Notes: generated by a model from the sequence alone, not told the origin. Shown: positions 22,201 through 61,856, counted from the first letter of the stretch. The stretch: DNA of 64,000 bases from Candidatus Magasanikiibacteriota bacterium (GCA_016193335.1 JACPSK010000001.1:279424-343423), one strand, 5' to 3'. Program-made: numbers and translations.

Positions 22201-25200
22201 CTTTCCATCCGTGACTGTGCCTTTCCCTATGGCGGTCACTACCTGCACCGGGCTACTGCTCGTAAAGTTGAAATTCAAAGTTTCCGCCGCTTTCTCGCAT
22301 TGACCATACTCTCCAAGACCAACTTTTCCTCCTGTTGCAAGTCCGTCGCCGCAAATTGATGAAGAAAAATATTTGGGTGAAGAACCAAGGAGCTGACATT
22401 CATCAGAGCAGCCTTCTAAACCTTTTTGACAACGGAAACCATTTTGTTGCGCGCTTGAATATTCGGGTATATTGGTGGAACAAATGTTTCCTTGGAGAAG
22501 ACAACGGGATCCACAGGCCGCTTTCGCCGCGTTTGTCTCTATCATAACATTTTCAGCGTAGTTACCGGCCACGTACACTTTGTTATTAATGACTTCGCAT
22601 TCTTCTCCATCCTCTATAACCGCATTGCCACAGATACTGAGGGATTCTTGACAGGCTTCTGCTTCTTCTTTGCTTTTGTTTGTTTTTTGTTCGCACCAGT
22701 AAGTAGCCAGCTGGGTGCCTATGTGTAAGCAGGTATCAGTACAAAATATATTTGACTGAGATTTATCCGTAGCGTCTTCGTAACTCAAGGCCATGTCACA
22801 GGCCTCGCCAAGACCCACCTCTCCGTCCCCGCACCACGATTGCCCCACCAACTCTGAATTGAACTGGCTGTAAGGCAGAGAACCTGTCAGCGCAGCGCCT
22901 TCTGGCGTGCTGGAACTGAATAGACAGTGCGTATCGCAGACACCCTCAGCCCATTTCAAGGTTCCGTCAGCGTTCTTTTCATTCAAATCACAATCTTCAC
23001 CCGGATCTTTTACGCCATTCCCGCAGAGAGGAAATGTTAATAAGACCGCGTTCGATAAATCACTGCCTTTCGGCAAACATAAAGGAGAACAAAAATCAGA
23101 CCATCCGAAACCGGTATGAAAATTGCTCACTGAAGCGACACTATTCCCATCCAGTTCATCTTTGTCTTCCGGGGTATACCAATCATACCCATAGTCCCAT
23201 TTATTCAATTTTTGTCCGTATTTGCTACATTCGTTTGGAGAACTGTAAGGAACAACGCCGTATTTTGTCTTCTCTCCTATGTTATAGGCAGTAAATGGAT
23301 CCGGTTCTACTTTGAGATCATTGGCCGCGCAAGGCGTGGCATCATTTTTTGTCTTAAATATCCATTCAAAAGGCTGGAGAGCTTTCCCTTGTTTAAAACT
23401 TCCATCCCCATTGATGAAATCAATGGAACGAATGGCAGAACTGAGACTCACCTTGTAATAGGTATTTTTGTCCAGAGAATCCGGATCCACCACCAATTTT
23501 AATTTGTTACTGCTATCAATATCATAAGCAGTGTTTGATATCTGCGTGGGATTGACGCAATTCGCGTTGTCACATTTGAACAAAACGAAACCCGCCTCAT
23601 AGGTGGACGGATCCATGTGTCTGTTGAAATGCGCGGCAATACTCGCGTTGATGCAAGATTCTGAACAATTTGGTTCCCAATAGATAACTTTCGGATCCCC
23701 AAGTTGGATATTAAGCAGACTGTAAGGCGACAAAAGCGTAGTAAGAGCTCCGGCCCCTTCTGTGGCTTCTTTGATAACAATTTCAGCCTCTGCTTCGATA
23801 TGAACAGGGGTAATGGCTGTATCTTCTTTTGCTCTGGCGATCCCTCTCGTATCTGTGTATTGAGGCGGATTTGGCCAATTATGAGCCGTAGCTTTGACAA
23901 GATCAGAACTGTCCCACACCCAACCTTTGCCGTCCACCGGAAGGACCGAACATTCCTGATCTCCATACCCGTTGATGAAATAATGCAAAGGATTAGTCGG
24001 AACCGCGAATATATCTTCCATATCTTGAACCGGATACTTGGGGTCCTGAACAGTACCCAGTTTGTCGGTGCTGTATTGAATGGGATTAACACCGGCATTG
24101 CTCAATACGCATAATTTATCATTGGTTTTGAAAGCGAAACAATAGGCAGTGCCTTCGCCGCAGGGTCTGGTTTCCTTGAGTGAACCGCTCTGGATCACCG
24201 ATTCGCCGAGAAGCTGAACGGTTTCCTGTGATTTGATATCTTTGGAAAGTTCAACATTGTACCAAGTATTGGGCGATAAATACGTCTCAGGGCTGTCATT
24301 TTCTTTTATAATCAAGATCTCATTCTCCAATTTCAAATCAAGGTTTGTTAGCTGTTCTTTTTTTGCGGCGCAATCCATGGCTCCGTCTTCAGCAGTATCG
24401 CAGACATAGACCTTCACATTATTGGAAGTGAGGGTGCCCGTATCCATGGACATACTGAAACGAACCGCGATACTCGCGTTTTTGCAGGAAGCTTCTCCCA
24501 ATTTCAGATTCTGTTCCCAAGGAGTTGGAGATGGAAATTCCTGCTGAATGTCAAGTTTATTCCAATTCGCCACATTACAATCCTCAATCACATAAGGACG
24601 GTTGGGTATGAGGCCCGTGGTAAAACGCCATACATATCCCGCGTCACGGGTTTCTCCGGGGCACACATAACCATTACCTATCCATTGACCAGCCCCCGGT
24701 CCTTCGGTACAGCAGGTATATCCGGTACCCGGAGCTGTGGCTCCCGTTTCTCTGCAATCTGAAACAGTGTAGAGCACTCCGTTGCTTACTTGCTCTGAAT
24801 CTGATTTTACTTTTATAAGTCCGCTCTGCATGGAAAGACCGGTACCCACATCTACAGGAAGCAATGTCCTAACCAAGGTATCAACAGACTGCAAAATGAC
24901 ATTTTCGCCGCCGAATTTGTCTTGCTCAGAATTCAGCCAGGTGTTGAGCGTATCGGCTTGAGCCCCGTTCTGCCAATAATACACCGTTGGATCGGTGGAA
25001 AAACCATAACCTCTGATATACAAACCCTCGCTCTCTTTGGGCAAAGGAGCCGGGCCTTTATTCGGGTCGAGCAAACAGATGCTGGGTAAAGGCAGACCTT
25101 CATATACTCCAAAAGTATCCAGGCCATTTGAATGCAAAGGCCCGTCGCCTCTTTGAACAATAAGATAATAATTCCCCGCGATCATAGAATCCGGAACCTG

Positions 25201-28200
25201 CACTATAACCTGTGTGTCAGACCAGGTGTCTTTGCAATACGCAGGAAGAGTGGCGTTGGCTTGTGCACAGGTTCCGTCATCCGGACTGCATTCATGACCC
25301 TCTTCGCTTGTAAGATATACGATGCCCGTACTTTCTCCAAAATTCTTTCCAAAAATCGTTATGTAGCTCCCCGGAGTGCTTGACACCGGATCTATGCTTT
25401 CAATGATTGGAGCAAGATCTTTCAAATCTCCGGCCAAAACTTGAAAAGGAACCGCGTTGCTTGTTTTCCCTCCCACTTGCACGGTAACCGGGACCTTGCC
25501 CACGGCAGTATTAAAAGGAACGAGGGACTGTAAGAAATTATCAGTCCATTTATCTTGGTCTACTTGGGCTATGACGCCGCCAAAATCCAGGTTACTCGTC
25601 GCACCCTTTATATTGCCAAAGGATTTGCCATAGGCCTGAATGTCGGTATTCGGCAAAGCGGAAGAAAATTTGTATGAATCTGCCGTAACTACGGCGCAGA
25701 GACCGGGCCGAACGGTTTCATTTTTTATGAAATACCCCGGCTTGCCGCCTGTAATCTGGTCATATTCTTGTTTTGTCAAGTAGCCTTTCGCGGCCGCGTC
25801 CGGGTCTGGGACAGGGTTAGGCCCAAATGCATCGTCGCTTAAATCAAACAAACTCGGGTCGTCTCCCCTGCTCACGCGTATGGCGCTTATCTGGCCCAGG
25901 GCTCCATAGGATCCAAAAACTCCGGTCTGATTGAATAAAGGATTGCTTTCCTTGCTTATTTGAATCGGCGCTTTGCCGTTGACAATATTTACCGGATTTT
26001 GATCGAAAAAACGCAGATACAAGCTAGGCTCAAGAGAAAGGGCCGCGTCTTTGTAATGATCCAAACCTGCCAGAGGATCGTACAAAGCCGCTACCTGGCT
26101 ATCTGACAATGGGGATTCGTACATCAAAAATTCATCTATACTGCCCTTAAAATACAGAGGGGTGAATATAGAACGTTTGCCCAAGTTAATCCCATTTACA
26201 TTTGATTGGGTCAGAGAGCCGGCGCTGAGAGCTGTGGTCTTGAGGACTTTCCCATCAAGATACAAAGCTATTTGTCCGAGAACACTGTCAAAACTTGCCA
26301 CTACATGGTGAAAAACACTGGGAGTAGCAAAGGGAGATGAGATACGTCTGTATTTTGACACGGTCGGATCGAACATTTCGAAATTTATATGCTTCGACAA
26401 ATCAGGGAGCGTATTGAGATACAAACTCCAGCCTCCTCCCGCTTGGCTGAGCCCGCCTCCGGCTACGACTTCAAGACCAGTCTTGCTCCCCTCTCCTCTT
26501 ATCCAAGCGCTTACTGAAAAAGAAGCGGGCGCCTGCTTATATATAGGACTCGGGTTTATACTCAAAGAATCATCCACGCCATCAAAAGCAATGGCGTTAC
26601 CTTTTGGGGCGGGGTTGGGAACTTCCACCACTACAAAACTATCCTGCCAGGTGCTCTTGATCACTTCACTGCACTCCGCCAATTTTGCTTCAATCCATTC
26701 GCTATCTTCATATTCTCCGCTGTCATTTAAATCGGTGGCAAATTCAACTTTCCCGATTTTGGAACCGAAATAATTACCCAATATACTTATCCAATTCCCG
26801 GAAGCCCCGTCCTGCGGAACAATATCCGTGATTTGAGGATATTGCACGCAGGTGTTGTTCACACACTTTAGTCCGGCAGAGCAAGGAGTTGATTCATCAC
26901 AGTAGGCTCCTTCTTCCGCCCCACAAGGTCCGCCGGCGTCAACGTCAGTCTCCCCTTTATCTTTGTCAAATTCTCCGTTGGCGCAATATCCGGGATACAC
27001 GAAAAAATAGGTCTGTTTTTCTGAACTGTTGTGGTCTATATCAAACACCGCGGCTGTAACAATATACTTTGTTTTCGCCGGAATGCCTGAGCCCAAAAAT
27101 AAAGGATAGCTGAAGGTAAAAGGGTTTGCCGATTCATTTTTGTAAGGACCGTCGTAAATGTCGAACACATCTGCCCCATTCTCCGAAGCAATATACAGAT
27201 GGACGTATCCAAGACCAGAATCATCTTCAACGGTAAATTCTATCGGATATGTATTGTTGCTATAGAGCTTGATGCCAGGCTCAACGCTCGGGTTCCCGTC
27301 TGGCAATACAAACTGTATGCCCGTTTTATAAACAGGCGCGGTTTTATCATTAATCTTCTGGTTAACCCCGAAATCGACTTCTTTGAATGTCTCCACGCCG
27401 CAGACAGTACCCTCTTCCAATTTCTCGCCATTAGTCGATTCTATTTCTTTGGGAACTTCAACAAGATATTTGCTATCTGAAAGCGGCAGGCAAGTTTGTC
27501 CTTCTGTTTTGTTTTCATCCGCGCAGTTCTGCTCTTCTCCGGCGTACTTATATCGAGCCTGAATTACTTTTTTACTGTCATCAACAAAGCTGATATCAAA
27601 TAAAGTTGTTATGTCTTCTTTGGTTAATTCATTGTTCCCTCTGTATATTTTCAGAGCGTCTCCCGGAGCAGTGCCCAAGGCCTTACTAAAGACCGCGCGG
27701 ATCACGATATTATTCATGTCTGTGACATCTTGGCTCGGCGTAATGCTTTTCACCACAAAGTGCTGTTCAAAACAAGAACCATAGCCACCCCCGCCGCCAT
27801 TACACTCGGCAACCGTTTGGCAGCCCCCGCCCCCGCCTCCTCCACCTGCGCCAGTGGCCTCCGCGAGCTTGTCCAAGACAAATTGGGTGATGGCGAGAGA
27901 AGACAAAATAATAGCAAGGCCTATAGTGCCATTTATCAAAATTTTCCGCGCTTGCAAAATCTTGTCTTCACTGCCTCCGGCGGTCATGTACACATATCCG
28001 CCGTACAATATAATACCAAGGGCTATGACCCCCAAAAGCCCAAGAAAAATTCGGATTATTTTTGCCACGGTAACGCGAATATCCTGGACTTCCAAATTCA
28101 CGGTTTCGTTTATCTTGGCCACGCCAAAGGTATCGCCTTGCGCCATGGCAAAATCGCTCCACGCAAAAGAAAATAGACCATAAAATAGAAACACGAAAAA

Positions 28201-28272
28201 ACATGGTAGGCCTATTTTGTACAATATTGTGCGAAGAGCTTTGTTCATAGGTAAAACGGAAAGTTTATTCAC
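16201..28272 (-). CDS. Giant (4023 aa) cell-surface adhesin-like protein. N-terminal signal plus two-helix membrane hairpin (TrbC/VirB2-pilin-like), then LamG/ConA-like, IPT-like, Ig-like and many Myxococcus-type Cys-rich (CGDG...ECDDGN..GDGC) repeats
   Basis: Single uninterrupted 12,072-nt ORF whose start overlaps the upstream gene stop by 8 nt. Motifs read from the translation: IIRIFLGLLGVIALGIILYGGYVYMTAGGSEDK...IGLAIILSSLAI, Gly8 linker, LamG block (SFSVSAWIRG...LYLDGKVL), and tandem CGNGKKEGTEACDDGNKKDGDGCSSSC-type repeats (~18150-18420). Confidence 0.8.
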   Translation of the reverse strand: MNKLSVLPMNKALRTILYKIGLPCFFVFLFYGLFSFAWSDFAMAQGDTFGVAKINETVNLEVQDIRVTVAKIIRIFLGLLGVIALGIILYGGYVYMTAGGSEDKILQARKILINGTIGLAIILSSLAITQFVLDKLAEATGAGGGGGGGGCQTVAECNGGGGGYGSCFEQHFVVKSITPSQDVTDMNNIVIRAVFSKALGTAPGDALKIYRGNNELTKEDITTLFDISFVDDSKKVIQARYKYAGEEQNCADENKTEGQTCLPLSDSKYLVEVPKEIESTNGEKLEEGTVCGVETFKEVDFGVNQKINDKTAPVYKTGIQFVLPDGNPSVEPGIKLYSNNTYPIEFTVEDDSGLGYVHLYIASENGADVFDIYDGPYKNESANPFTFSYPLFLGSGIPAKTKYIVTAAVFDIDHNSSEKQTYFFVYPGYCANGEFDKDKGETDVDAGGPCGAEEGAYCDESTPCSAGLKCVNNTCVQYPQITDIVPQDGASGNWISILGNYFGSKIGKVEFATDLNDSGEYEDSEWIEAKLAECSEVIKSTWQDSFVVVEVPNPAPKGNAIAFDGVDDSLSINPSPIYKQAPASFSVSAWIRGEGSKTGLEVVAGGGLSQAGGGWSLYLNTLPDLSKHINFEMFDPTVSKYRRISSPFATPSVFHHVVASFDSVLGQIALYLDGKVLKTTALSAGSLTQSNVNGINLGKRSIFTPLYFKGSIDEFLMYESPLSDSQVAALYDPLAGLDHYKDAALSLEPSLYLRFFDQNPVNIVNGKAPIQISKESNPLFNQTGVFGSYGALGQISAIRVSRGDDPSLFDLSDDAFGPNPVPDPDAAAKGYLTKQEYDQITGGKPGYFIKNETVRPGLCAVVTADSYKFSSALPNTDIQAYGKSFGNIKGATSNLDFGGVIAQVDQDKWTDNFLQSLVPFNTAVGKVPVTVQVGGKTSNAVPFQVLAGDLKDLAPIIESIDPVSSTPGSYITIFGKNFGESTGIVYLTSEEGHECSPDDGTCAQANATLPAYCKDTWSDTQVIVQVPDSMIAGNYYLIVQRGDGPLHSNGLDTFGVYEGLPLPSICLLDPNKGPAPLPKESEGLYIRGYGFSTDPTVYYWQNGAQADTLNTWLNSEQDKFGGENVILQSVDTLVRTLLPVDVGTGLSMQSGLIKVKSDSEQVSNGVLYTVSDCRETGATAPGTGYTCCTEGPGAGQWIGNGYVCPGETRDAGYVWRFTTGLIPNRPYVIEDCNVANWNKLDIQQEFPSPTPWEQNLKLGEASCKNASIAVRFSMSMDTGTLTSNNVKVYVCDTAEDGAMDCAAKKEQLTNLDLKLENEILIIKENDSPETYLSPNTWYNVELSKDIKSQETVQLLGESVIQSGSLKETRPCGEGTAYCFAFKTNDKLCVLSNAGVNPIQYSTDKLGTVQDPKYPVQDMEDIFAVPTNPLHYFINGYGDQECSVLPVDGKGWVWDSSDLVKATAHNWPNPPQYTDTRGIARAKEDTAITPVHIEAEAEIVIKEATEGAGALTTLLSPYSLLNIQLGDPKVIYWEPNCSESCINASIAAHFNRHMDPSTYEAGFVLFKCDNANCVNPTQISNTAYDIDSSNKLKLVVDPDSLDKNTYYKVSLSSAIRSIDFINGDGSFKQGKALQPFEWIFKTKNDATPCAANDLKVEPDPFTAYNIGEKTKYGVVPYSSPNECSKYGQKLNKWDYGYDWYTPEDKDELDGNSVASVSNFHTGFGWSDFCSPLCLPKGSDLSNAVLLTFPLCGNGVKDPGEDCDLNEKNADGTLKWAEGVCDTHCLFSSSTPEGAALTGSLPYSQFNSELVGQSWCGDGEVGLGEACDMALSYEDATDKSQSNIFCTDTCLHIGTQLATYWCEQKTNKSKEEAEACQESLSICGNAVIEDGEECEVINNKVYVAGNYAENVMIETNAAKAACGSRCLLQGNICSTNIPEYSSAQQNGFRCQKGLEGCSDECQLLGSSPKYFSSSICGDGLATGGKVGLGEYGQCEKAAETLNFNFTSSSPVQVVTAIGKGTVTDGKQNTDITVKLDGNPGIPNDASGSGDYTLQCGYTEFKVQDVSEQYNDCVVNGGNGGNLYGVAYNSCCALRPLRYEEYPPGQAGIGDPDNAVCRNTYIEARFNKEIEVDSLNNNIVIVKAHPEAGYDCASSGGYDITEKVQDAMGINTLVLKSDGGFFYQMWKQIKDFFVMLFNKIAFALSYFEIKDLTDIQTWCAGEIPVSFEAKTITVAGETPLKASLVSIYIGKLLDENSIYGVLLNGGLTGIRDIDGVGIKSADSFLLVRDDIWVFKTGNEICKIKDIQVDPDSYLFNKPGQGKDFNVKAESANGQFIVPIKDVYDWVWKWDPVNNIIFDIPDINKPDNTISSKDVEGHINGIVAAEIITDKGEDSQEGFKFTEIMDLTANFCENPWPAFEADGSWSPWKDEKYNFSMSYCADAGNAGDTSDDLPFLNNIFEIQNEQDVQIKVPGNCLLAPGTSCLEDSQCVPLYNLPAVNTSPGYPMYTPECKLELSAVELKTNGCKLTSLPTEKFCRKTDANGNIQYPPLYGSTYISCSASADCDQAQNESCVNASVAWKVTDSCVDISFEVDEGKKLLAQDVLRKILFFNDKPENKDVVGLQIFKNMDEEGKAKSLGAWYAEKFEDLGTMQEKNVANYEALSDNTNYYVNALNFVEDGAGSDIFNNIYLLSINPDADSSTKDVLEQLVSSLEFNTNLSDHKYCMADGSFDIRFGEDANDITDKTCETDFDCRDAGGSPLVDAQGLPTTSGVCSNAKTKFFRDWARLPGIQQALKNINTHFSTNEGLPTFKGDLKSGTFVPGYTVSKWPSWSATLAASVGGLPVDPINRWSSCGLCLGGSSEEQGVFLGCASDQDCPGENDSCVLQDPNTCWNESKSLYMCPAFSSVYEYEYQKDTQGYVLHGNLEFFNLDDEIVSGLIDTQSFTDEQWCQSALPLPVNPFDETCGNGIVGPAEECDPPGQLLYSKIGNIAQKEGSCVLSPGIACLNASVDCPKYVDLDGAGILLTNKEGVCINSKSSNAQEIIYDQLVSTWEPGGLKLVAFGCSSDSECRTASYYDATSFGIVDLDNANPNILNQDGFNQYVAINQQTLTCAKSVTWEFDQCVGAIQGGLGQCPTGNFAKSICSQDCKTWEYGLCTASYTCGNGVVESGEKCDDGALNGTYGHCADSKSALSDGSKVGACQGLHPAYCGDGLVQAGKEVCDIAEAKYAQKPGYCKYANTLCGAVNECNFNLVCTNGACYNSNGKALGLSCSQNSDCVDTCLKDPSYHFSSEFSCAANCKAVGNYCGDGSIQHEYEACDDGNKTNGDGCNTYCEVEEVTLLCGNGKKEGTEACDDGNKKDGDGCSSSCTVEIAKAECGNGKIEQDIGEACDLGKDKNGVKCSPVYGKSCNYCSLDCKNILTIDSGEFCGDGLISGPEQCEPFSSTAILIPQTLAEVQDICLAETQVQTCENDCEDHFQSPWKYGKETLDGYICKNTANPQNRIRVAYGHAPEGVPDTYYGFPIGGINSGVNVSFSSYTKWDQYTDPAKELCNKLYGTSAQPLPFELIPWEDNPDADAFMEKVLVSDVQCKQDCVAAYDSCVAEKSQANSKQLVCDAGPDYTNKGSWVCSSDCLGEPENKCVACGVKTFGPEPLLALLNPMVDPLTGGDTQSLGSGLNWAKLADYDLSLGRKQLKTEGGLGAFFSLEPDDVSLITVKTPSNPFFITSESNIEANLLCKEEYALSFNRLGIQTATGISGSMLQYKAKKKHFFDYPVNGEKEKIVNELVVSPAVPEGVVRVVLRWTDEENKKGGIFSGGLYSSRLAKFSGGDPTKALIRYADAKSAVNPLQKLCKFMVKTDKTVQTDEGSVSEEYWMPAPLNGSGCTGTNGVFVHEIAGAAKTFIQSFTIDPSIIVTAQPHSYGFFVEAVDDVLGSYTNSNLQVDVYSYHEGQVPLYSLYQPDYSFNIKDAADSSSNSLAPYWHVFNFLVSPSADGTYSYGIEPVETIETDICQIKENMPLPPEEKCSL

Positions 28273-30433
28273 CTGAAACAGGGCTTACTTCTTCTGAAGA
28301 CAAAAGGTCCAGACAAACAGGGGTACTCGGCTGAGCCGTAACCGAATCATCCGTGGTAACGCAAGCAGTGTCAACCGTTCCGGTCTCAAGCACTTCGTCT
28401 TCATTTAATTGTTGAAGCTTTACATCAAAACAATCGGCCCCGGTTCCAGTGATCGGGTTCCCTTCCGTGTCTTCTTTATATGCGCATACTATGGATTCTC
28501 CTTTGGCGCCAGACTTGGGCCCCCTGCCCGGATACAAACAATTTCCATTTGAAGAAAGCACGTTTGAATCCGCATAAGGAAAATAATAAAAATCCTGATC
28601 ATTGGGACCAAAAACCCTGTGCAAAAGACTGGCTACGGTAGAGTTCGGATAATCAGGCACCGCAAGTTTCAAAGGATTATCCAGATCTTCAGATTCAGGT
28701 TTTGACCAAAATTCGAGAACTGTTCCCGGAATAGGGGTTACATTATCAGGAAACTCGCGCATTCTAATATTGTAAAGAGTTCCGAAAAGCATTCTTCTAT
28801 TGAAATACAAAGTAACCGGTTCGTCTTTGACCACGTTTTCTTTGTCAACCCCGGGAAAAACACGTTGGAGGTAGGGCGAACTCCGGTCTATTTTATTGAG
28901 GACGACAAAAGACCACCAATAGTTGTCTTCTTGAGCTCCTTCAGCCCGTCCTTTTGCCACTGCGTTTGGGGTTGGCCCGTCCAAAGCATTGCCAGACATA
29001 TCCATGACGCCGCTGAATGGTTTGCTTTCAAATGATTTGTTGTTTGTCGGATTAATTAATTCAGCCGAATGAACCACAATGCTATATTGATTTTTCGAGG
29101 TATCAGTACAAGCAGTTTCTCCGCAATCAAGGGGCAAACAATACAGCGGATTGCCGCAACTGTTTTGTCCGCAGACTTCGTCAGAATAAAATTCCACTGT
29201 TTTGTATCCATTGCTTATCTTCCATTCACCGGTTGGTACAGCCTCGCCCGCTCCATCCAATGTATTGAAAACCAAATTGTTGTGTGGGACCGCGGCTGTT
29301 GTCAAACCCTGTACCATAGTGGGATCCACGGCTTCATTGAAATGAATTTGGACATACTCATTTCGAGCCGTTTCAGTATTGGGATCTGGATTCACGGATA
29401 CCACAAAAGGAGGAGATTGGTCCAAAGTGCCGTCAGTTTGAAAATCCCACGTATAGTATTCGGCGCCAAGAAGGTCGCCGAATACCCCAATTTGTTTGCC
29501 GTTAACCGGTGTTTTTTTGAGAATACTGTTGTTCAATTTCACCGTATGCCATACTTCTTCGGCTTCTTTGCCCAGATGATCAAAGGGCTTTATAACTAAA
29601 GTATATACATTTCGAGCGTCAGCGTCCTCGTACAAAGCTTGGGCTGAGGCGTTTTTGAGCTGTTTGATTTCGGCCTGGGTATCGAAAATTCCCACGGCTT
29701 CTGTTTTGAGATGATCACAATCTTTCTCATAACTGAAATTGGGACTTTCTGTAAGGCAATCTCCATAATACGGCTCAGAAAAAACGTCATCACAAAGAAC
29801 CGGAACAGCTTCAGATCCCCAGCAGGTTTTATTAAAATTGTCCATCACTGACGCAGGGTCAATGGGTTCAAAAAAAGTAATCGCTATCTTTGTATTCCGC
29901 TTTACTCCTGTTTGGTCCCTAAACGGATAATGATCTTTCACCACCTTGCCCAAAGCCCCGCTTCCGGTGAAAGTATCAAATACCGGAGCTCCTTCGCTCT
30001 GTTTCGCGGAAGGATTTATGGCTTCGGTAAGCGCGTTGATGACCCATTGCGCTATAGCAAGAGAAGACAAAATAATGGCAAGCCCGATAACCGCGTTCCT
30101 TAAAATGGTTTTGCCGGCCGTGACTTTTTCTTCATTTCCCGCCGCGGTCATAATAGTATAACCGGCGTAGATGATAAGAATCACGGCAATAAGGCCAAGT
30201 AAACCGAGAACCGCCCGTATAATGCGCGCGGCTATCACTCGTATGTCAGCATTCGCCAATTGCACTTCTTGGCCAAATTGGCCAAGACCAAAGGTGTCTG
30301 ATTGGGCGGACACAGTGCCTCCTCCATACGCCAAACTCAGGCCCAAAAAAAGAAAAACCGCGACTCCAACTATAACGGCATGGAGCGCAGTTTTGTTACT
30401 GTACTTTCTGAATGTGAATATCCTTGGCAGCAT
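28265..30433 (-). CDS. 722-aa surface protein paralogous over its N-terminal ~135 aa (signal plus membrane hairpin module) to the giant protein, followed by Ig-like/beta-rich extracellular domains
   Basis: Conserved N-terminal region: DTFGLGQFGQEVQLANADIRVIAARIIRAVLGLLGLIAVILIIYAGYTIMTAAGNEEK...IGLAIILSSLAIAQWV versus the giant protein's DTFGVAKINETVNLEVQDIRVTVAKIIRIFLGLLGVIALGIILYGGYVYMTAGGSEDK...IGLAIILSSLAITQFV. Confidence 0.7.
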   Translation of the reverse strand: MLPRIFTFRKYSNKTALHAVIVGVAVFLFLGLSLAYGGGTVSAQSDTFGLGQFGQEVQLANADIRVIAARIIRAVLGLLGLIAVILIIYAGYTIMTAAGNEEKVTAGKTILRNAVIGLAIILSSLAIAQWVINALTEAINPSAKQSEGAPVFDTFTGSGALGKVVKDHYPFRDQTGVKRNTKIAITFFEPIDPASVMDNFNKTCWGSEAVPVLCDDVFSEPYYGDCLTESPNFSYEKDCDHLKTEAVGIFDTQAEIKQLKNASAQALYEDADARNVYTLVIKPFDHLGKEAEEVWHTVKLNNSILKKTPVNGKQIGVFGDLLGAEYYTWDFQTDGTLDQSPPFVVSVNPDPNTETARNEYVQIHFNEAVDPTMVQGLTTAAVPHNNLVFNTLDGAGEAVPTGEWKISNGYKTVEFYSDEVCGQNSCGNPLYCLPLDCGETACTDTSKNQYSIVVHSAELINPTNNKSFESKPFSGVMDMSGNALDGPTPNAVAKGRAEGAQEDNYWWSFVVLNKIDRSSPYLQRVFPGVDKENVVKDEPVTLYFNRRMLFGTLYNIRMREFPDNVTPIPGTVLEFWSKPESEDLDNPLKLAVPDYPNSTVASLLHRVFGPNDQDFYYFPYADSNVLSSNGNCLYPGRGPKSGAKGESIVCAYKEDTEGNPITGTGADCFDVKLQQLNEDEVLETGTVDTACVTTDDSVTAQPSTPVCLDLLSSEEVSPVSGE

Positions 30434-31254: not shown

Positions 31255-32730
31255 TCAAAGCTGTAATAACTTTCGCAAACTGTTTTTCAGTTTTCCTTGG
31301 TCGACCACTTCTTGGATCCCTGACTCCATATCACGAATAAGAATGGTACTGTCTTGAACTTCTTTCTGGCCCAAAATCAAAGCGTGAGTAACCCCGCGTT
31401 TATTGGCACTCTCGAGCTGAGCTTTGAGAGATGATTTCGCCAAATTGTGATATACCAAGATGCCATCTCTTCTAAGCTGTTCGAGCAAATACAAAGCTCG
31501 TTTTCTCCCCTGCTCGCCCAATTGGGCAAAGAAAACAACGGGTGTGGAAGATTTTTTGGGAACCCCGGGTTGCGGTTCTTCTTGTTTTGACTTTTTTTGC
31601 AGAGCCGCGTATACCCGTTCAATTCCCATCGCGAAACCGGCGGCAGGCGTGGGAGCGCCTCCCAGCAATTCAATGAGGCCGTTGTATCTTCCACCTCCGG
31701 CCAAACTGCTCTGCGCGCTCTTTTCTACATTGTCTTCCACGATCTCGAACACGGTATCTGTATAATAATCCAAACCTCGCACCAAGCTTGGTGTCAGAAC
31801 ATAGGGTATTTCCGCGGCGTCGAGATATTCCAAAACAGACGTGAAATAACTTTTTGATTCTTCAGAAAGCCAATCCAGGATTTCGGGAGCTTCTTCAATG
31901 ATGGGCAGATCTTCTTCCTCATTTGAATCAAGAACGCGCAAAGGATTTTTGTGCATCCTCTTTTTGGATTGTTCTGACAGATAACTCCGCTTGCTCTTGA
32001 GATACCCCAACAATTCCACCACATACTGTTCTCTATCCGCGAGAGTGCCGATACTGTTGACTCTAACCGTGCTTTCAATACCCAGATCTCTGAGAGTATT
32101 GTAGGCCACGCTAATAAGTTCGGCGTCTACTACAGGGCTGTGTTCTCCTATGTGTTCACAATCAAACTGATGAAATTCGCGATAACGTCCGGCCTGGGGA
32201 CGGTTGTGGCGAAACATGGGACCCCAATTCCAGATCTTTACCGGTTGCGGCAGCGTTTGCATGCCATGCATGATGTAGGCGCGGGCAACGGCGGCTGTAA
32301 GCTCGGGACGCAAACATACTTTAGTGCCGTCAGCATCTTCAAAAATGTACATTTCTTTTTCCACCACGTCCGTTCCTTTCCCCAAAGAACGCACAAATAG
32401 TGAAGCCTGCTCCACTATGGGAGTTTCTATATATGTGTATTCATAAGCTTTGGCCACAGCCTCGGCCGTATGATATATGCGTGTCCAGAGCTCACTCTGT
32501 TGGGGCAAGAGATCTTTCATGCCGCGAATCAAGGCGAGAGAAGATGATTTCGTCGCGGCCTTTTTTTCTTTTTTATCATCTGAAGAAGACTTACCCGGAC
32601 CCTGTATGGTGGTTTTGGCCTTTGGAGCTCTAAGAGCTCCTTTCTTTTTTCTCTCCGCTTTGCCTGAATCCTTTGCCTTTCTTGGCGCAGAAGCTTTCAT
32701 TTTTGAAGATTGTTTCTTTTGGGGAGACAT
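31255..32730 (-). CDS. hisS: Histidyl-tRNA synthetase (class II) with a ~65-aa lysine-rich N-terminal extension, or a mis-called start
   Basis: LIRGMKDLLP...IETPIVEQASLF...DVVEKEMYIF aligns to the HisRS N-terminus. Motif 2 FRHNRPQAGRYREFHQFDCE, anticodon-binding C-terminal domain. Confidence 0.85.
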   Translation of the reverse strand: MSPQKKQSSKMKASAPRKAKDSGKAERKKKGALRAPKAKTTIQGPGKSSSDDKKEKKAATKSSSLALIRGMKDLLPQQSELWTRIYHTAEAVAKAYEYTYIETPIVEQASLFVRSLGKGTDVVEKEMYIFEDADGTKVCLRPELTAAVARAYIMHGMQTLPQPVKIWNWGPMFRHNRPQAGRYREFHQFDCEHIGEHSPVVDAELISVAYNTLRDLGIESTVRVNSIGTLADREQYVVELLGYLKSKRSYLSEQSKKRMHKNPLRVLDSNEEEDLPIIEEAPEILDWLSEESKSYFTSVLEYLDAAEIPYVLTPSLVRGLDYYTDTVFEIVEDNVEKSAQSSLAGGGRYNGLIELLGGAPTPAAGFAMGIERVYAALQKKSKQEEPQPGVPKKSSTPVVFFAQLGEQGRKRALYLLEQLRRDGILVYHNLAKSSLKAQLESANKRGVTHALILGQKEVQDSTILIRDMESGIQEVVDQGKLKNSLRKLLQL

Positions 32731-32759
32731 AATGAAAATTTTTAATTTATAATTTATAA

Positions 32760-32874
32760 TTTTTAAACAATTTTTATTCTCTTAATTTCTAATGAGTGAG
32801 CCCACACGGTACCTTTCGGACAAGGATATTTTGTGTAGAGGATAAAAATTACATCATTGGAAATTGTTTAAAAA
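32760..32874 (-). mobile_element. MITE-like element, copy L (14-bp TIRs tttttaaacaattt / aaattgtttaaaaa), inverted relative to copy R
   Basis: ~93-95% identical to the reverse complement of 37286-37400, with perfect terminal inverted repeats. Sits between the hisS start and the lepB stop. Confidence 0.5.
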
Positions 32875-32881
32875 TTAAAAA

Positions 32882-33481
32882 TTACAAATTGTATTCCGGA
32901 AGATTGCCGAATGAAGTGAGACGACTGAATGGCCAGCCTCTGAACACGACTCTCCCAACGATATCATTCACAGAAATAGGGCCGAAACGACGAGAATCAT
33001 AGCTCGCGTCTCTGTTGTCGCCAAGTACAAAGTACTGATCCGGACCCAAGGTAATCGAAACTGAACCGGGGGTTTGTTCTTCGAGATACGATTCTTGGAT
33101 AATAACACCCTGCGGGTATTCATTGTTATAAACCACAACTTTGTTCCCCTCCACTTTTATCCGTTCTCCGGGCAAACCTATGATACGCTTCAGATAATTG
33201 TCCGAAGCCACGGGCGCTCTGAAGACAATGATTTCTCCCCGCTCCGGCGCGCGGAAACGATAGCTGATTTCGTCTATGATCAAATAATCACGTTCATAAA
33301 AAGTGGGTTCCATCGATTGTCCTTTTACATAAAAGGGCTTGAACAAAAAGTAGCGTATAAGAACGATGGTAACGCCGGCGAGCAAAGTTACTTTGATGAG
33401 CTCCAAAAAAAAGAGCCCCAATTTATTCAGAAAACCGCGCTCCGTAATATTCACTTGTTCGCGATCATCTTCTTTTTTCAT
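32882..33481 (-). CDS. lepB: Signal peptidase I
   Basis: 199 aa. N-terminal TM, Ser box GQSMEPTF, GDNRDASYDSRRFGPI box. Confidence 0.85.
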   Translation of the reverse strand: MKKEDDREQVNITERGFLNKLGLFFLELIKVTLLAGVTIVLIRYFLFKPFYVKGQSMEPTFYERDYLIIDEISYRFRAPERGEIIVFRAPVASDNYLKRIIGLPGERIKVEGNKVVVYNNEYPQGVIIQESYLEEQTPGSVSITLGPDQYFVLGDNRDASYDSRRFGPISVNDIVGRVVFRGWPFSRLTSFGNLPEYNL

Positions 33482-33623
33482 AATAAAATGTATAACACTG
33501 ACCTCACACTATATCGTTTAACCCTAATCCAGTATACAAAAAAAAACTTCTTATTTCAATCCTGGCCAAGTCGAAACAGTAAATCTATACTCCCGCCGTT
33601 TGTTTTAGTAAAATCCTCTGTTG

Positions 33624-33697
33624 TGGGCATGCCTGGAGTCGAACCAGGGACCTCAACATTATCAGTGTTGCGCTCTAACCATCTGAGCTACATGCCC
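33624..33697 (-). tRNA. tRNA-Ile (anticodon GAT)
   Basis: Reverse complement gives gggcatg-ta-gctc-agatggtta-gagc-g-caaca-ctGATaa-tgttg-aggtc-cctgg-ttcgact-ccagg-catgccc-a. All stems pair. Confidence 0.85.
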
Positions 33698-33868
33698 GTT
33701 TTAACGCTTGGAAATTGATACGTAGAAATCAACCGGTTTATGTCTGACTCAACCGTAAGATATTTATTCTAAAAAAACGAATCACAAGGTTTAAACGTTA
33801 AAAGAGTATACCTATATATAAGTAATTCGTCAACCCTATTTCTTAAACCGCGCTCTTCTACGAGGGGC

Positions 33869-34738
33869 TTATAAAATCACACTGTCTTCATCTTCAGATT
33901 CGATTAGTTCAGGAAGTATATAGGTATCATATCCAAAGCCATCTATCCCTATATATTCGCCTTCTCCTCTTAAAATACGTTCCATGGGAAGGCAAGCGAA
34001 ACATCCATCCTCAGCTTTCGGGCATTTGAAACGCTCCAACTGACGAGCCAATTTTACGTCTCTGGCTATTTTGAGCACCCGCTCGTAAGCCTGATTCAGA
34101 TCGGGGAGTTCTTTTTCAGTCAATTCATCTTGGAATTCGAGATACCAATAACTGGCCTTTTCCACCTTGTGTTTTTGACAACGATCAACCAGCAAATAAT
34201 AGATAGGCAATTGTAAAGAAAACTCTGATTCTTCGGACTTTCCTGTTTTAAAATCAATAATATGCACGCCTTTGGTATCGGGAAGATACTCGAGCCAGTC
34301 CACACGGCCGCATAAAATAATGTTTTCTTCTTCTGAAAGCCAAAAATACGGCAGTTCTTTATTTATTTTTACTGCCAAACGTTTCAGAGGCCCTGGATGA
34401 TGGTAGACTCGCGTCATCATGGTCTGGCCGCGCTTTTTGTACGCGGATTCCTGGTTCTCGTCGGTAAAGCCCCCTTTCTTTCCTGATATATCTTCCCAAA
34501 CTTCATTAAAACGATCCATGAGCGGTTTGTCGAAGCGTTCTTCTTTTTTCAAAACAGACAAAGACTCCAAAGTATCGTGAACAGCCTGGCCCAAAGCAAG
34601 GGCCGGAGACATACGTTTTATCTTGTGGTTTGTTTTGGGATCGCGATACACATTGCGGAGATAATAAGCCCGAGGGCAAGACAAAAAATCGCTGATTGAG
34701 CTGTGCGAAACCCAGGTGGCGGTATATTTGTCGGGCAT
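33869..34738 (-). CDS. PD-(D/E)xK nuclease, Cas4/RecB-like (DUF83-type) with 4-Cys cluster, orphan (no CRISPR/cas nearby)
   Basis: 289 aa. N-terminal Cys (FLSCPRAYYL), nuclease core CGRVDWLEY...IIDFKTGK (D..D-x-K), conserved Y/Q helix, C-terminal C-x6-C-x2-C (CPKAEDGCFAC). Confidence 0.65.
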   Translation of the reverse strand: MPDKYTATWVSHSSISDFLSCPRAYYLRNVYRDPKTNHKIKRMSPALALGQAVHDTLESLSVLKKEERFDKPLMDRFNEVWEDISGKKGGFTDENQESAYKKRGQTMMTRVYHHPGPLKRLAVKINKELPYFWLSEEENIILCGRVDWLEYLPDTKGVHIIDFKTGKSEESEFSLQLPIYYLLVDRCQKHKVEKASYWYLEFQDELTEKELPDLNQAYERVLKIARDVKLARQLERFKCPKAEDGCFACLPMERILRGEGEYIGIDGFGYDTYILPELIESEDEDSVIL

Positions 34739-34750
34739 ACATTTTTAAAA

Positions 34751-34883
34751 TTTTTAAACAATTTTAATGCTTAATTTGAAATTAATTTTTGTCAGATTGA
34801 AAATATTCTCCAGTATACTTGAAAGGTTTCAATCTTCTCTGCCTGATTATTATTACATTCCCTCATTAAAAATTGTTTAAAAA
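34751..34883 (+). mobile_element. MITE-like element, third copy (same 14-bp TIRs, divergent interior)
   Basis: Starts tttttaaacaatttt and ends aaaattgtttaaaaattataaattgtaa, as in copies L and R. Interior differs. Confidence 0.4.
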
Positions 34884-34902
34884 TTATAAATTGTAATTTT
34901 AA

Positions 34903-36021
34903 CTACATATAAGACCCCATGCACACATTAAAATTTTTGATTCCTGTATTATGTATCTGTACCATCTCCCTGCTTTCCAAAACGAGAGCATTATACTCAT
35001 TAACCAAAGCATTATATTCATCCACTTTTGCGTTAAAATTTTCCCCCGGATTTGAGCTCTGCGCGTCCAGATATTGTTTGGTCTCTGATAATTTTTGATC
35101 CACTGCGTTTATTTGCGCGTTTTTACTTTGTATGTTTGTTTCAAGCGCAGCATCAGGCTCGGCGCAAAGACTTTTTGGAGCGCCAAATTCTTGCACTGCC
35201 ATCCACACTTCATTACCCTCATAAATTCCCTTTCCCACGGCTACTCCGATCTCTGTAAAACCTGCTTTCAATATGTTGGCCCTATGGCCCGGGCTGTTCA
35301 TCCAGGCGTTCACCAAATCACCGTCATTGGCAAAATCACCAAGAGCCAAATTTTCACCTACCAAAATATAGGTATAACCCGAGGCCTGCGCAAGATCTCC
35401 CGGTCCTTTACCCGAAGGAGACACATGAGCAAAATACTGCAAAGCAAACATATCATTGAGTTTTGATTGCGCGGCTTGCTCCAACTGCTTATTCGATTTT
35501 AAAATCGCCAGTCCAGCCTTAGCGCGTTCCTGATTGCTGATAATGATAACTCCATCCGCGCTTAAAGCGCTGCCGGGAGACGCGCTGGTGTTTGTTTTCA
35601 AAGGGGCGGGAGCGATAATCACCGGCTCCTGTTTTATACTTGGTTCAATCTGGGCTGTGTCTTCCTGCTTTACTGGCTCTAAGTCCTTCGCGGTCTTATT
35701 ATTTTGAATGATCTCCGACTTCTCGCTTGGTTCTTGAGAAGGGACGCGGTCTTTCTGAGGCAAAACTTCTTTTGCCGGAACTCCTTTTACTTCCGTTTTA
35801 TTGGAAGGAAATGCTGTTTCTTTCTCCGCAGGTTTTTGATATAAATCTTGGAAATTCTTAGAAACTGCCGTGCTCGTTTTTCTATCAACAGGCTCCGCAG
35901 TAAGCGATTCGTTATCGTCTGATATTGTTTCATTCTTTTTAGATATATCAAAAAATGCCGTATAGGCCAAAGCCAAAACCAACAAAGCAGAAAAACCGAA
36001 AAACCAGAGTATTTTTTTCAT
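34903..36021 (-). CDS. Secreted/anchored CAP (SCP/PR-1, YkwD-like) domain protein with C-terminal coiled-coil. Start taken at internal Met before the signal-anchor
   Basis: MKKILWFFGFSALLVLALAYTAFF anchor. CAP motifs GHRANILKAGFTEIGVAVG and EVWMAVQEFG. C-terminal heptad-rich region (NALVNEYNALV). Confidence 0.65.
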   Translation of the reverse strand: MKKILWFFGFSALLVLALAYTAFFDISKKNETISDDNESLTAEPVDRKTSTAVSKNFQDLYQKPAEKETAFPSNKTEVKGVPAKEVLPQKDRVPSQEPSEKSEIIQNNKTAKDLEPVKQEDTAQIEPSIKQEPVIIAPAPLKTNTSASPGSALSADGVIIISNQERAKAGLAILKSNKQLEQAAQSKLNDMFALQYFAHVSPSGKGPGDLAQASGYTYILVGENLALGDFANDGDLVNAWMNSPGHRANILKAGFTEIGVAVGKGIYEGNEVWMAVQEFGAPKSLCAEPDAALETNIQSKNAQINAVDQKLSETKQYLDAQSSNPGENFNAKVDEYNALVNEYNALVLESREMVQIHNTGIKNFNVCMGSYM

Positions 36022-36158
36022 ACAAAATCTTAGGACCGAAAAGACTTGTCTATATTGTAACTCAGATACCTTTATAAAACAAAACGACCCCGCCTCCATC
36101 TATAAACACAATCTTTTGTGAACATAGACAGTGTGGGGTCGTGTGAAACAAAATCTAT

Positions 36159-36584
36159 CTACTCGTAGATAGGCGCGCCGGGCCTCTTCCTCGGGGAAGG
36201 AAGCCTGCCCAAATCAGGGCTCAAGCCGGCTCCTTCAAGGAGCGAGCGAAGCGAGGCAAGCGTGCGGCCCTGCTCAGAGTCGTGCCGGAGAGCCATTGCT
36301 TTGTAGCATGCGGAGACGACTGTGGAATGGTCACGGCCCCCCAGAGTCTTCCCGATCTGGGGGAAAGACATCCGGGTATAAATCCGGAGAAGATACATGC
36401 AAAGATGCCTGGGCAAGGCTATCTGCTTGTACCTTCCTGAGCCTTGGACAGATCCAAAGGCCACATCAAAAAAACCGAGCAACGTGCCAATGACCAAACG
36501 GGCATCCCGGGCGCTGTTCGCCACCCCGACCAAACGCCCGCCATAAACCCGCGCTTGTGGGTCATTTGAAGTCGAAACGGACAT
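36159..36584 (-). CDS. Small DnaA domain-IV-like helix-turn-helix protein, encoded in a ~60% GC patch
   Basis: ALPRHLCMYLLRIYTRMSFPQIGKTLGGRDHSTVVSACYKAMA matches the DnaA C-terminal DNA-binding consensus (R..AMYL....T..S...IG..FGgRDHtTV.ha..k). Start chosen at MSVSTS, which has a GGGAGG SD 5 nt upstream. Confidence 0.55.
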   Translation of the reverse strand: MSVSTSNDPQARVYGGRLVGVANSARDARLVIGTLLGFFDVAFGSVQGSGRYKQIALPRHLCMYLLRIYTRMSFPQIGKTLGGRDHSTVVSACYKAMALRHDSEQGRTLASLRSLLEGAGLSPDLGRLPSPRKRPGAPIYE

Positions 36585-36608
36585 GATGACCTCCCTTGTT
36601 GTCTGACT

Positions 36609-36637
36609 TATATACACAAAAAAAGAGCTCTTGTCAA
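36609..36637 (-). promoter_or_regulatory. Near-consensus sigma70 promoter TTGACA-N17-TATATA driving the DnaA-C-like HTH gene
   Basis: Minus strand reads gagcTTGACAagagctctttttttgtgTATATAagtcagacaacaagGGAGGtcatcATG. Confidence 0.5.
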
Positions 36638-36665
36638 GCTCATGTATTATTCAACTTAATCTAAG

Positions 36666-37109
36666 TTAGCTTGTATTCCGAATATTCAGATATTCCTCTA
36701 CTCCTTTTAGCCAACCGCCCTCAAAATACTTCTCGGGCTGGAAAACTTGCGGGTCAATCCACAACATTTCAGTATGCCTTTCGGAAAGTCGTATAGTTCC
36801 ACTTTGCAAAATGCCTTCATAGCCTATAGCAAATATCCTCACCATAGGGTTGCCGAGGATTCGTTCAATTCTTTCATGCCTCATAAAAAGCAGCGGCCTG
36901 CCAATGCTATATTGAATATCCTCGCCCAATTCCTCGGAGATTTTTCGTTTGATGATCTGATCCAAGGAAACACCAAATTCATCCTTTTGGATTCTGCCGC
37001 CCGGCAAATCCCAATCTCCAAAACGATCTTTCAATATAAGCAAGGCGCCATCTTTTTCCAAAAATACTTTTACAGCCACGAAATAGCTGTCTTTTTGCTC
37101 ATTATTCAT
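36666..37109 (-). CDS. NUDIX hydrolase
   Basis: 147 aa. Nudix box GGRIQKDEFGVSLDQIIKRKISEELGE (G-x5-E-x7-REUxEExGU pattern). Confidence 0.7.
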   Translation of the reverse strand: MNNEQKDSYFVAVKVFLEKDGALLILKDRFGDWDLPGGRIQKDEFGVSLDQIIKRKISEELGEDIQYSIGRPLLFMRHERIERILGNPMVRIFAIGYEGILQSGTIRLSERHTEMLWIDPQVFQPEKYFEGGWLKGVEEYLNIRNTS

Positions 37110-37164
37110 AATCTAACGGCTTCGATTGGCAAATTAATATATCTTGGACAAAATCCCGACACAG

Positions 37165-37238
37165 TGGACCCAAGAGGATTCGAACCTCTGACCTCTACAA
37201 TGTCAATGTAGCGCTCTAACCAACTGAGCTATGAGTCC
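37165..37238 (-). tRNA. tRNA-Val (anticodon GAC)
   Basis: Reverse complement gives ggactca-ta-gctc-agttggtta-gagc-g-ctaca-ttGACat-tgtag-aggtc-agagg-ttcgaat-cctct-tgggtcc-a. Confidence 0.85.
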
Positions 37239-37285
37239 ACTCTATGGGGATGAGAAAACACTAATTTCTAATTTTAAATTTATGA

Positions 37286-37400
37286 TTTTTAAACAATTTC
37301 CAATGATATAATTTTTATCCTCTACACAAAATACCTTTGCCCGAAAGATACCGTGTGGGCTCATTCATTAGAAATTAAGAGAATAAAAATTGTTTAAAAA
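37286..37400 (+). mobile_element. MITE-like element, copy R (14-bp TIRs). Inverted partner of 32760-32874
   Basis: Internal ~85 bp (ccaatgatataatttttatcctctacacaaaatacctttgcccgaaagataccgtgtgggctcattcattag...) is ~93-95% identical to the reverse complement of copy L. Confidence 0.5.
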
Positions 37401-37432
37401 TTATAAATTGTAAATTAAAAATTCTCATCTTC

Positions 37433-53362: not shown

Positions 53363-53457
53363 TTAAACCCCCTCTTACATCTCCCCCTTAGTAAAGGGGG
53401 AGAGACTGCGCAGCCACGATCCTCTCCTTTACTAAGGAGGGGATATAAGGGGTGGTT
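53363..53457 (+). repeat. Palindromic repeat units (C5/G5-armed hairpin tctcccccttagtaaagggggaga plus ~44-bp unit ccacgatcctctcctttactaaggaggggatataaggggtggtt), left flank of a GC-rich insert
   Basis: Both units recur at 54078-54206 (ccacgatcccctccttttcaaggaggggatgtaaggggtggtt; tctccccctttaaaagggggaga). Seen in sequence. Confidence 0.5.
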
Positions 53458-53652
53458 GAATGGTCTGACCTAGTCCGCAAACAAAAAAACCGACTCTTCA
53501 TCGGAATATAATTAGGATTGGGGTGGCCTTGCGCGCGTACAGCTCTATCACCCCCACTGCGATGAAAAGCATGTACAAACACACGCGGAGCTTGCCCAAA
53601 GCTCAACGCGGGCGCGCAAGGCTATAGAAAGGTGGGAGCCCGGCCTGCCGGG

Positions 53653-57938: not shown

Positions 57939-58055
57939 ATTGTAGCATATTTTGGATCTATCACTTCACGAAATACTTTAAAAATCAGAGAAGGAGAGTG
58001 AAGCAGACTGACTTCTGAGGATTCATAAAATATGTTGTCAGTGGATAAACGCAAG

Positions 58056-58160
58056 CCTATACCTTCACAACATATTAGTTTGGGAGCTGGAGGACGAGTG
58101 CGAGAGCGAAGCGGGATGACTTCCGCAAGCTCCCAAACTAATATGTTGTGAAGGTATAGG
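58056..58160. repeat. Conserved ~105-nt palindromic element, locus B (perfect 33-bp stem cctataccttcacaacatattagtttgggagct around the same GC-rich core)
   Basis: Arms are exact reverse complements. Core gaggacgagtgcgagagcgaagcgggatgacttccgca. Lies at the boundary of the high-GC island, upstream of recG. Confidence 0.55.
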
Positions 58161-58225
58161 CGTCTATAGACGTAGACATTTTGCTTTCCTCACTCGGTCC
58201 TTTACAGCAAAGACAAAGAGTTGGA

Positions 58226-58262
58226 AGCAGGGCTCGCGGATGCGATGAGCCCTGCGAGAGGC
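58226..58262 (-). terminator. Hairpin (gcagggctc-loop-gagccctgc) with U-rich tail downstream of the ALDH gene (minus-strand sense)
   Basis: 9-bp perfect GC-rich stem. The minus strand continues ttccaactctttgtcttt. Confidence 0.4.
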
Positions 58263-58291
58263 GAGAGTCCGGCTATGACCGGACGAAAGAA

Positions 58292-60673: not shown

Positions 60674-60687
60674 TTTCCTCTCTCCTA

Positions 60688-61638: not shown

Positions 61639-61784
61639 GGGCGCAAGCACAGGGTGCCTTGCCCTTTCAACAAAACCAGTACCAGTCTGAGTATCCAAAA
61701 AACACCTCGCCTGTAGGTTGTTGCTTGCACAAATGTGCCCGCTGACTCTACTGTATTGAGGTGTTTTTGTAAAGGTATATCGTG

Positions 61785-61856
61785 TGCTCTCGGCAGGAAT
61801 CGAACCTGCATTGCCAGATCCGCAATCTGGTGTCCTATCCATTGAACGACAAGAGC
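61785..61856 (-). tRNA. tRNA-Arg (anticodon GCG)
   Basis: Reverse complement gives gctcttg-tc-gttc-aatggata-ggac-a-ccaga-ttGCGga-tctgg-caat-gcagg-ttcgatt-cctgc-cgagagc-a. All stems pair (one G-U). Confidence 0.8.

Follow-up and report, generated by a model that had tools for sequence, protein, structure and literature searches.

A candidate MITE-like family of palindromic intergenic repeats with heptamer-array arms in Patescibacteria

Three short palindromic elements, called L, M and R, were found close together in a 64,000-nucleotide stretch of a Candidatus Magasanikiibacteriota bacterium genome (GCA_016193335.1 JACPSK010000001.1:279424-343423; hereafter the window, with positions counted from its first letter). 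[quoted passage not shown] The proposed unit consists of an outer array of two to four AATTTNN heptamers, a 14-mer arm, a freely evolving interior of 70–105 nt and a mirror-image arm. Its two structured arms would be recognised by a protein acting in trans, in all likelihood a transposase whose gene lies elsewhere, and this protein would insert the unit into AT-rich intergenic spacers in either orientation. The evidence consists of the anatomy of the copies, the occurrence of further members in other genomes, and the presence or absence of elements at orthologous gene junctions. Labels of the L001–L022 type denote contigs examined outside the window.

Anatomy of the elements

An exact pattern search located the 14-mer TTTTTAAACAATTT six times in the window, at 32760, 32861 (minus strand), 34751, 34870 (minus strand), 37286 and 37387 (minus strand). 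These positions form three inverted pairs, in agreement with the three elements that a first-pass annotation of this DNA had placed here. The other near-matches within the 64 kb each carry two mismatches, and the resulting count of nine matches at up to two mismatches was reached by none of 100 shuffles. The elements and their parts are as follows.

32732–32893, no strand assigned: element L, a unit homologous to R, filling the lepB–hisS spacer (repeat search and L/R alignment)
32737–32759, plus strand: L outer array, AATTTTT AATTTAT AATTTAT AA (arm alignment)
32760–32773, plus strand: L left 14-mer, TTTTTAAACAATTT (pattern search)
32774–32860, no strand assigned: L interior, 87 nt, 36% GC, matching the reverse-complemented interior of R at 94% identity
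32861–32874, minus strand: L right 14-mer, reading AAATTGTTTAAAAA on the plus strand (pattern search)
32875–32890, minus strand: L right outer array, one heptamer shorter than the matching array of R
34744–34902, no strand assigned: element M, in the spacer that separates the stop of the CAP gene (34903) from the PD-(D/E)XK start (34738)
34751–34764 and 34870–34883: M 14-mers, enclosing an unrelated 105-nt interior, with an array on the right side only (34884–34902)
37258–37428, no strand assigned: element R, the whole unit inverted relative to L, between tRNA-Val and the PGM/PMM stop (37433)
37263–37285 and 37401–37423: R arrays
37286–37299 and 37387–37400: R 14-mers

The 14-bp terminal inverted repeat (TIR) described in the first-pass annotation is indeed perfect in all three copies, but it understates the extent of the symmetry, since the inverted repeat continues outwards through the AATTTNN arrays. 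Each 14-mer is flanked on its outer side by two to four phased heptamers, giving a structured arm of about 35–45 nt in a unit of about 160–170 nt; with the heptamer arrays counted, the imperfect inverted arms measure 22–67 nt. When 15 arms from the window and three other genomes were aligned in register, heptamers preceded the 14-mer in 13 of them, and the full arm reads (AATTTNN)n-AATTTTT-AAAC-AATTT, in which the last heptamer, AATTTTT, overlaps the 14-mer. The two exceptions are the left arm of M, where an array is missing, and the L002 copy, in whose right arm a GC-rich insert of ~55 nt separates the array from the 14-mer. A yyAATGA motif within 2 nt of the end of one arm makes the unit asymmetric. 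In L, the right 14-mer is adjoined on the minus strand by CCAATGATG. Heptamer arrays in the window are confined to L, M (on one side) and R.

L and R are nearly identical and lie in opposite orientations, as previously annotated. A repeat search pairs their inverted arms over 159 nt (32732–32890 with 37270–37428, 92% complementary), and 140 ungapped nt (32732–32871 against 37289–37428) show 94.3% identity, with a longest exact run of 45 nt and eight mismatches, all of them transitions. If one 7-nt indel is allowed, the homology extends over 32732–32893 and 37258–37428 and reaches both outer flanks. The indel corresponds to a difference of exactly one heptamer in one outer array, which indicates that the arrays change by whole units. 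M resembles L and R only over ~22–36 nt at each end, and its interior has no significant similarity to that of any other copy. Across all copies the interiors span 70–105 nt, with weak subterminal similarity between some of them (z = 3–9) and a centre that cannot be aligned. L and R would then represent two recent copies of one subfamily in opposite orientations, and M a member of a diverged subfamily.

The opposite orientations of L and R might also be those of an inverton, that is, a 90–105 bp segment flipped by a site-specific recombinase, L and R being one switch in its two states. The size of the elements, their intergenic position upstream of genes and their common inverted repeats with differing interiors do resemble invertible promoters, and the interiors of L and R point in opposite directions when seen from the genes downstream of them. 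After a flip between the repeats, however, the arrays would still be in place, whereas a comparison of L with R shows the outer arrays inverted as well as the interior, the unit-specific heptamer indel included. This inversion of the whole unit with both arrays, unlike a flip of the interior alone, points to L and R as sister insertions. In addition, M has a single orientation in the two contigs that span it, L001 and L009, which come from independent samples, and no recombinase gene was found among the window open reading frames (ORFs) scanned. We consider an inverton very unlikely.

With regard to composition, the interior had been described as GC-balanced, which the base counts contradict: the interiors of L and R have 33–36% GC and each whole element 19–22%, compared with 46% for the window. 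Among the ORFs of 50 aa or more that were listed, a single one begins within L (32796–33002, plus strand); it extends into lepB in antisense and is not matched by any ORF in R. Rfam covariance models, applied at gathering thresholds and at E ≤ 5, matched only the two tRNAs and none of the elements. The folds are more stable than those of shuffled sequence (z = −2.2 to −5.8), and no clear compensatory changes between L and R were seen in the central hairpin. At the NN positions of the heptamers, partner arms agree at 2.0 of 6 positions, compared with 2.3 of 6 for non-partner arms. As partner arms agree no better than non-partners, there is no sign of selection for base pairing of the arrays, which argues that their symmetry reflects a consensus common to each arm, as would be expected if a protein recognises the sequence.

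Family members in other genomes

Further members were sought in 596 Gb of species-representative genomes as paired 14-mers (28 specified bases) separated by a gap of 80–110 nt, a pattern for which we estimate a chance expectation well below one match. The scan returned three other metagenome-assembled genomes (MAGs), two labelled Patescibacteria and one labelled "Gammaproteobacteria". Heptamer arrays and the AATGA motif are present in all three, although the search pattern required neither. L003 and L004 each contain a second copy within 6 kb, L002 has an additional solo arm, and L012 (identical to L013 and a relative of L004) carries one full copy and array remnants. In total, nine full elements occur in five genomes, three in the window and six elsewhere, along with several solo arms. 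No copies are present in L014–L017 and L020–L022.

All nine full copies sit between co-directional housekeeping genes and occupy the spacer. The junctions concerned are fadB-like–thiolase, acylphosphatase–GT2, ribBA and the next gene, dCMP deaminase–dcd–thyA, thyA–folA, lepB–hisS, CAP–nuclease and PGM–tRNA-Val; in the window, the wholly occupied spacers are 151 nt (L), 164 nt (M) and 194 nt (R) long. Relative to transcription, the asymmetric AATGA end faces downstream in three copies and upstream in five, and the copies show no orientation bias.

Neither the element nor the arm found a copy in viral contigs (IMG/VR), phages or plasmids. Among the papers searched, none has the 14-mer in a relevant context and none links MITEs with Patescibacteria. 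The AATTTNN/14-mer repeats are best regarded as a previously undescribed, MITE-like family of Patescibacteria. The single match of a metagenome scan, L005 (Ga0256838_1000012), was rejected as an unrelated, long array of short TTTAAACAAATTGTTTAAA-type palindromes, which lies at about 2900–4500 on the 166-kb metagenome contig and fits the search pattern through low complexity only.

Presence and absence at orthologous junctions

Homologues of HisRS place the window in Candidatus Magasanikbacteria. The lepB–hisS spacer, which is 151 nt long with L in the window, was compared with the same junction in two relatives. In L006, the closest relative found (HisRS 89% aa identity, about 82% nt), it is 45 nt long and contains a small GC hairpin and no element, and the flanks align on either side of a 137-nt difference. 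In L007, with a HisRS of 70% aa identity, it is 12 nt long, again with no element. A second, independent comparison is offered by L004 and L012, whose sequences share one gene order for 8 kb with an nt identity of about 76%. In the thyA operon of L004, elements are present at dCMP deaminase–dcd and at dcd–thyA; that of L012 has a full element at thyA–folA, none at dcd–thyA and only a 31-nt array remnant at dCMP deaminase–dcd. The thyA–folA junction holds a different palindrome in L004 and is 5 nt long in L014. Presence/absence polymorphism at orthologous sites is thus observed both at lepB–hisS and in the thyA operon, and the elements are gained and lost faster than the species diverge, at varying junctions. 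Such gain and loss makes regulation tied to a given locus less likely and favours behaviour of the insertion type. We envisage that the arrays gain and lose heptamer units and that whole elements can be lost, with solo arms remaining.

The same spacers may be read in terms of a host cis-acting module, whose arms would bind a conserved host protein or form an mRNA hairpin between operon genes, in the manner of REP/BIME or ERIC sequences, and so control transcription, RNA processing or translation. The apparent movement would then be the rapid turnover of a regulatory spacer. Such a module would account for the filled spacers between co-directional genes in nine of nine copies, for a downstream start codon 0–13 nt from the outer array with no Shine-Dalgarno sequence, and for a 14-mer that is exact in almost every arm across genomes while the interiors have diverged past alignment. 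It would also fit the TNNAAT hexamer at each heptamer junction, the promoter-like matches that fall in the arrays, the folds more stable than those of shuffles, and the other intergenic palindromes of inverted arrays, with different cores, that relatives contain. However, the element is not kept at the orthologous junctions of close relatives, has neither an orientation preference nor a tie to particular genes, shows no covariation between its arms and bears no U-tract terminator signature. We regard a host module as rather unlikely.

Two more specific signals were considered and rejected. An intrinsic terminator would need a GC-rich stem with a following U-tract, and none is present; as for a fixed sigma-70 promoter, the promoter-like hexamers derive from the heptamers and their position shifts between copies.

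The segment between L and R

The genes enclosed by L and R, together with the adjoining hisS, are as follows.

31255–32730, minus strand: hisS (histidyl-tRNA synthetase), its ATG 6 nt from the L outer array
32882–33481, minus strand: lepB (S26 signal peptidase), directly adjoining hisS in relatives
33623–33697, minus strand: tRNA-Ile(GAT), a conserved synteny anchor
33869–34738, minus strand: PD-(D/E)XK nuclease, widely conserved in Patescibacteria
34903–37109, minus strand: CAP-domain protein, GC-rich DnaA_C helix-turn-helix (HTH) protein and NUDIX hydrolase, without counterparts in the relatives examined
37164–37238, minus strand: tRNA-Val(GAC), a conserved synteny anchor, next to R

The first-pass annotation presented L and R as an inverted pair bracketing a 4.4-kb accessory segment. 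The gene content it gave is correct (S26 signal peptidase, tRNA-Ile, PD-(D/E)XK nuclease, CAP, DnaA_C HTH, NUDIX and tRNA-Val), and the minus strand carries all of these genes along with hisS and PGM/PMM on either side. The outer heptamers of L hold the last three codons of lepB and its stop codon. The accessory nature of the segment does not survive comparison with relatives. L007 has the order ClpB, tRNA-Val, tRNA-Ile, lepB-hisS, small ORF and YqeY, with the relative orientation seen in the window. In another genome, represented by the two contigs L018 and L008, the former carries ClpB, PGM, the PD-(D/E)XK nuclease and lepB, and the latter hisS, YqeY, a pilin-like protein and a giant protein. 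The nuclease, previously called orphan and Cas4-like, is a full-length gene with 6767 homologues, the best 120 of which are full-length and 61–69% identical. The synteny in L007 and in L018/L008, together with the conserved nuclease, suggests that L is an insertion between two ancestral neighbours, lepB and hisS, and that the bracketed 4.4-kb block is mostly resident chromosome in its ancestral orientation. Of the segment, only the CAP, DnaA_C (56–60% GC) and NUDIX genes, which have no counterparts in the relatives examined, appear variable. The earlier description of the elements as MITE-like holds with respect to their short, non-coding, TIR-bounded form and insertion-like behaviour, and fails with respect to the bracketing.

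The annotation had further suggested that the L/R pair could mediate inversion of the segment; in a related reading, the pair would bound a mobile composite 4.4-kb segment. The inverted repeats are 160 nt long and 94% identical, and their 45-nt exact run is long enough for homologous recombination; moreover, the relatives examined lack the CAP/DnaA_C/NUDIX block, which includes a GC-rich gene. On the other hand, the lepB–hisS adjacency and the order ClpB–tRNA-Val–tRNA-Ile–lepB–hisS are older than L and R, with an unchanged orientation in L007, L018 likewise has PGM and the nuclease as residents, the enclosed genes are all co-oriented with the flanks, and L is a simple insertion between ancestral neighbours. 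Logan short-read contigs from four samples were all collinear with the window and gave no alternative orientation, although these contigs end at L, at a tRNA or inside M, so that none of them crosses L or R. The 45-nt exact match makes inversion mechanistically possible, but nothing observed supports it, and we judge both the inversion substrate and the mobile composite highly improbable.

Two other interpretations of this region were discarded. For an integron attC array, TTTAAAC and GTTTAAA match the core sites (RYYYAAC ... GTTRRRY) at only 5/7 positions, no integrase is present among the ORFs scanned, and the "cassettes" would contain tRNAs and lepB. A replication origin is hinted at by a gene strand switch at about 38.9 kb and by the orphan DnaA_C gene inside the segment, but there is no GC-skew sign change and no DnaA-box match, and the elements of other genomes do not lie at strand switches.

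Two further features of these genes were noted. The stand-alone DnaA C-terminal HTH protein (152 aa, 36159–36617) is encoded in a 56–60% GC island between L and R and had no PHROG match; it is a DNA-binding protein encoded beside the repeats. In L018, a tandem duplication of the PDDEXK_3 and PGM/PMM genes, one copy truncated, adjoins ClpB (L018:3349–6896).

A probable MITE-like element, proposed to be read in trans

Turnover between relatives, the lack of an orientation bias and the non-coding content support a MITE-like element, and we infer that the family spreads by transposition and that a protein recognises its arms. The AU-rich hairpins in operon mRNAs and the −10-like TNNAAT hexamers may have side effects on expression.

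Several observations weigh against a MITE-like element. Neither 30 ORFs of the window nor 16 ORFs beside copies in other genomes contain a transposase or recombinase domain, and no longer element with matching arms was found. No target-site duplication (TSD) is recognisable: the outer edges of L and R show no obvious direct repeat, the arms pass gradually into AT-rich flanks, and exact boundaries do not emerge from the empty sites in L006 and L012, which have diverged too far or carry array remnants. The copy number is low and clustered: all three copies of the window fall within 4.7 kb, the remaining 59 kb being free of them, and L003 and L004 each have two copies within 8 kb. Interiors differ within one genome while the 14-mers are perfect, a pattern unusual for a MITE burst that could instead reflect in-place selection on the arms, as in the host-module reading.

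Other arrays and features in the window and its relatives

Relatives contain other intergenic palindromes or arrays of phased units, at L018:9809–9914, L004:4068–4181, L014:9955–10000, L002:4080–4130 and L020:~985–1004. The cores of these arrays are AACAAYT (7 nt), AAAGTTYAT (9 nt), GATAYGT (7 nt), TAAGGATNN (9 nt) and TTAATTG (7 nt). Inversion about a short centre, or placement directly before a start codon, is frequent among them; the architecture is that of the AATTTNN family with a different sequence. These arrays built of other units hint at a more general architecture in this bacterial group. A wider class of Patescibacteria intergenic palindromes, with arms of phased 7–9 nt units read by array-binding proteins and with the AATTTNN/14-mer elements as one of its families, is a speculative proposal that we hold to be doubtful. 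If true, it would amount to a new transposon-end architecture with its own mobilising enzyme or, alternatively, to phylum-specific protein–DNA switches directly before start codons without a Shine-Dalgarno sequence.

Four features of the window elsewhere were recorded. A giant 4023-aa ORF follows a T4SS-pilin/Big_5 protein (16201–28272 and 28265–30433), and the pair is syntenic in L008:2401–11553, where the giant ORF has 4170 aa. A 40-nt inverted repeat (58055–58161, 95%, 27-nt loop) edges a block of ~60% GC (58181–61842), as compared with 46% for the window; this block encodes an aldehyde dehydrogenase (58292–60673, minus strand) and a DeoC-like aldolase (60688–61842, minus strand) and was probably acquired horizontally. 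A 35-nt inverted repeat of 83% with a 28-nt loop (53363–53460) occupies the spacer downstream of a RadA/Sms-like gene (51917–53263). An AbiEii-type nucleotidyltransferase toxin gene (type IV toxin-antitoxin; 505–1185) is found near tRNA-Asp at the start of the window.

Implications and comparison with known systems

Genomes of Patescibacteria (the Candidate Phyla Radiation) are very small and are commonly held to contain little mobile DNA. If a MITE-like family with ends conserved to the base between genomes turns over within essential operons (lepB–hisS and dcd–thyA–folA), selfish or semi-domesticated repeats would be among the forces shaping even such streamlined genomes. Through the elements, long AU-rich hairpins and −10-like hexamers come to lie beside start codons and tRNA genes, and the heptamer-array arms provide a handle for finding the protein that reads them. 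Because the repeats break short-read assemblies, they also matter for the contiguity of MAGs.

In function, the elements come closest to intergenic palindromes of the Correia, ERIC and REP types. The Correia elements (CREE) found in Neisseria have a TA duplication, a site for integration host factor (IHF) and hundreds of homogeneous copies. The elements described here are like them in their length (~100–160 bp), their long inverted repeats and their insertion between operon genes, and a further likeness would be that Correia elements are transcribed with their operons as hairpins and can give rise to promoter-like hexamers at their termini. Unlike Correia elements, they are seen in few copies, and the sequences are not similar; no TA duplication or IHF site turned up here, in a comparison not put to a specific test. 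REPs have a smaller size and owe their mobilisation to RAYT (IS200-like) proteins. With the REP/BIME and ERIC sequences of enterobacteria the elements have in common that they are imperfect palindromes in transcribed spacers, variable between relatives, and that host function is debated; unlike in those families, a RAYT did not turn up here, and the two groups differ in sequence and in the heptamer architecture.

Bacterial MITEs are non-coding elements of 50–800 bp with TIRs of at least 10–15 bp, mostly intergenic and present in several copies, which show insertion polymorphism and TSDs of 2–10 bp (PMC11602168). By that definition, the present elements are alike in their TIRs (a perfect 14 bp in all three copies of the window), in a size within that range with no transposase gene, in their non-coding and intergenic nature, and in their polymorphism between relatives. 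They differ in having no recognisable TSD of 2–10 bp and no identified parent insertion sequence or transposase, in the heterogeneity of interiors within one genome, and in arms that consist of phased heptamers outside an invariant 14-mer. For arms of this type, the Emigrant MITE offers a parallel: Emigrant is bound by the pogo-like Lemi1 transposase, and repeated subterminal motifs act as extra binding sites (PMC1636448). Emigrant is eukaryotic and has other motifs, and its repeats lie inside the TIRs, whereas the arrays here lie outside the 14-mer. Its combination of inverted ends with repeated short motifs gives a precedent for arms composed of repeated units (PMC1636448).

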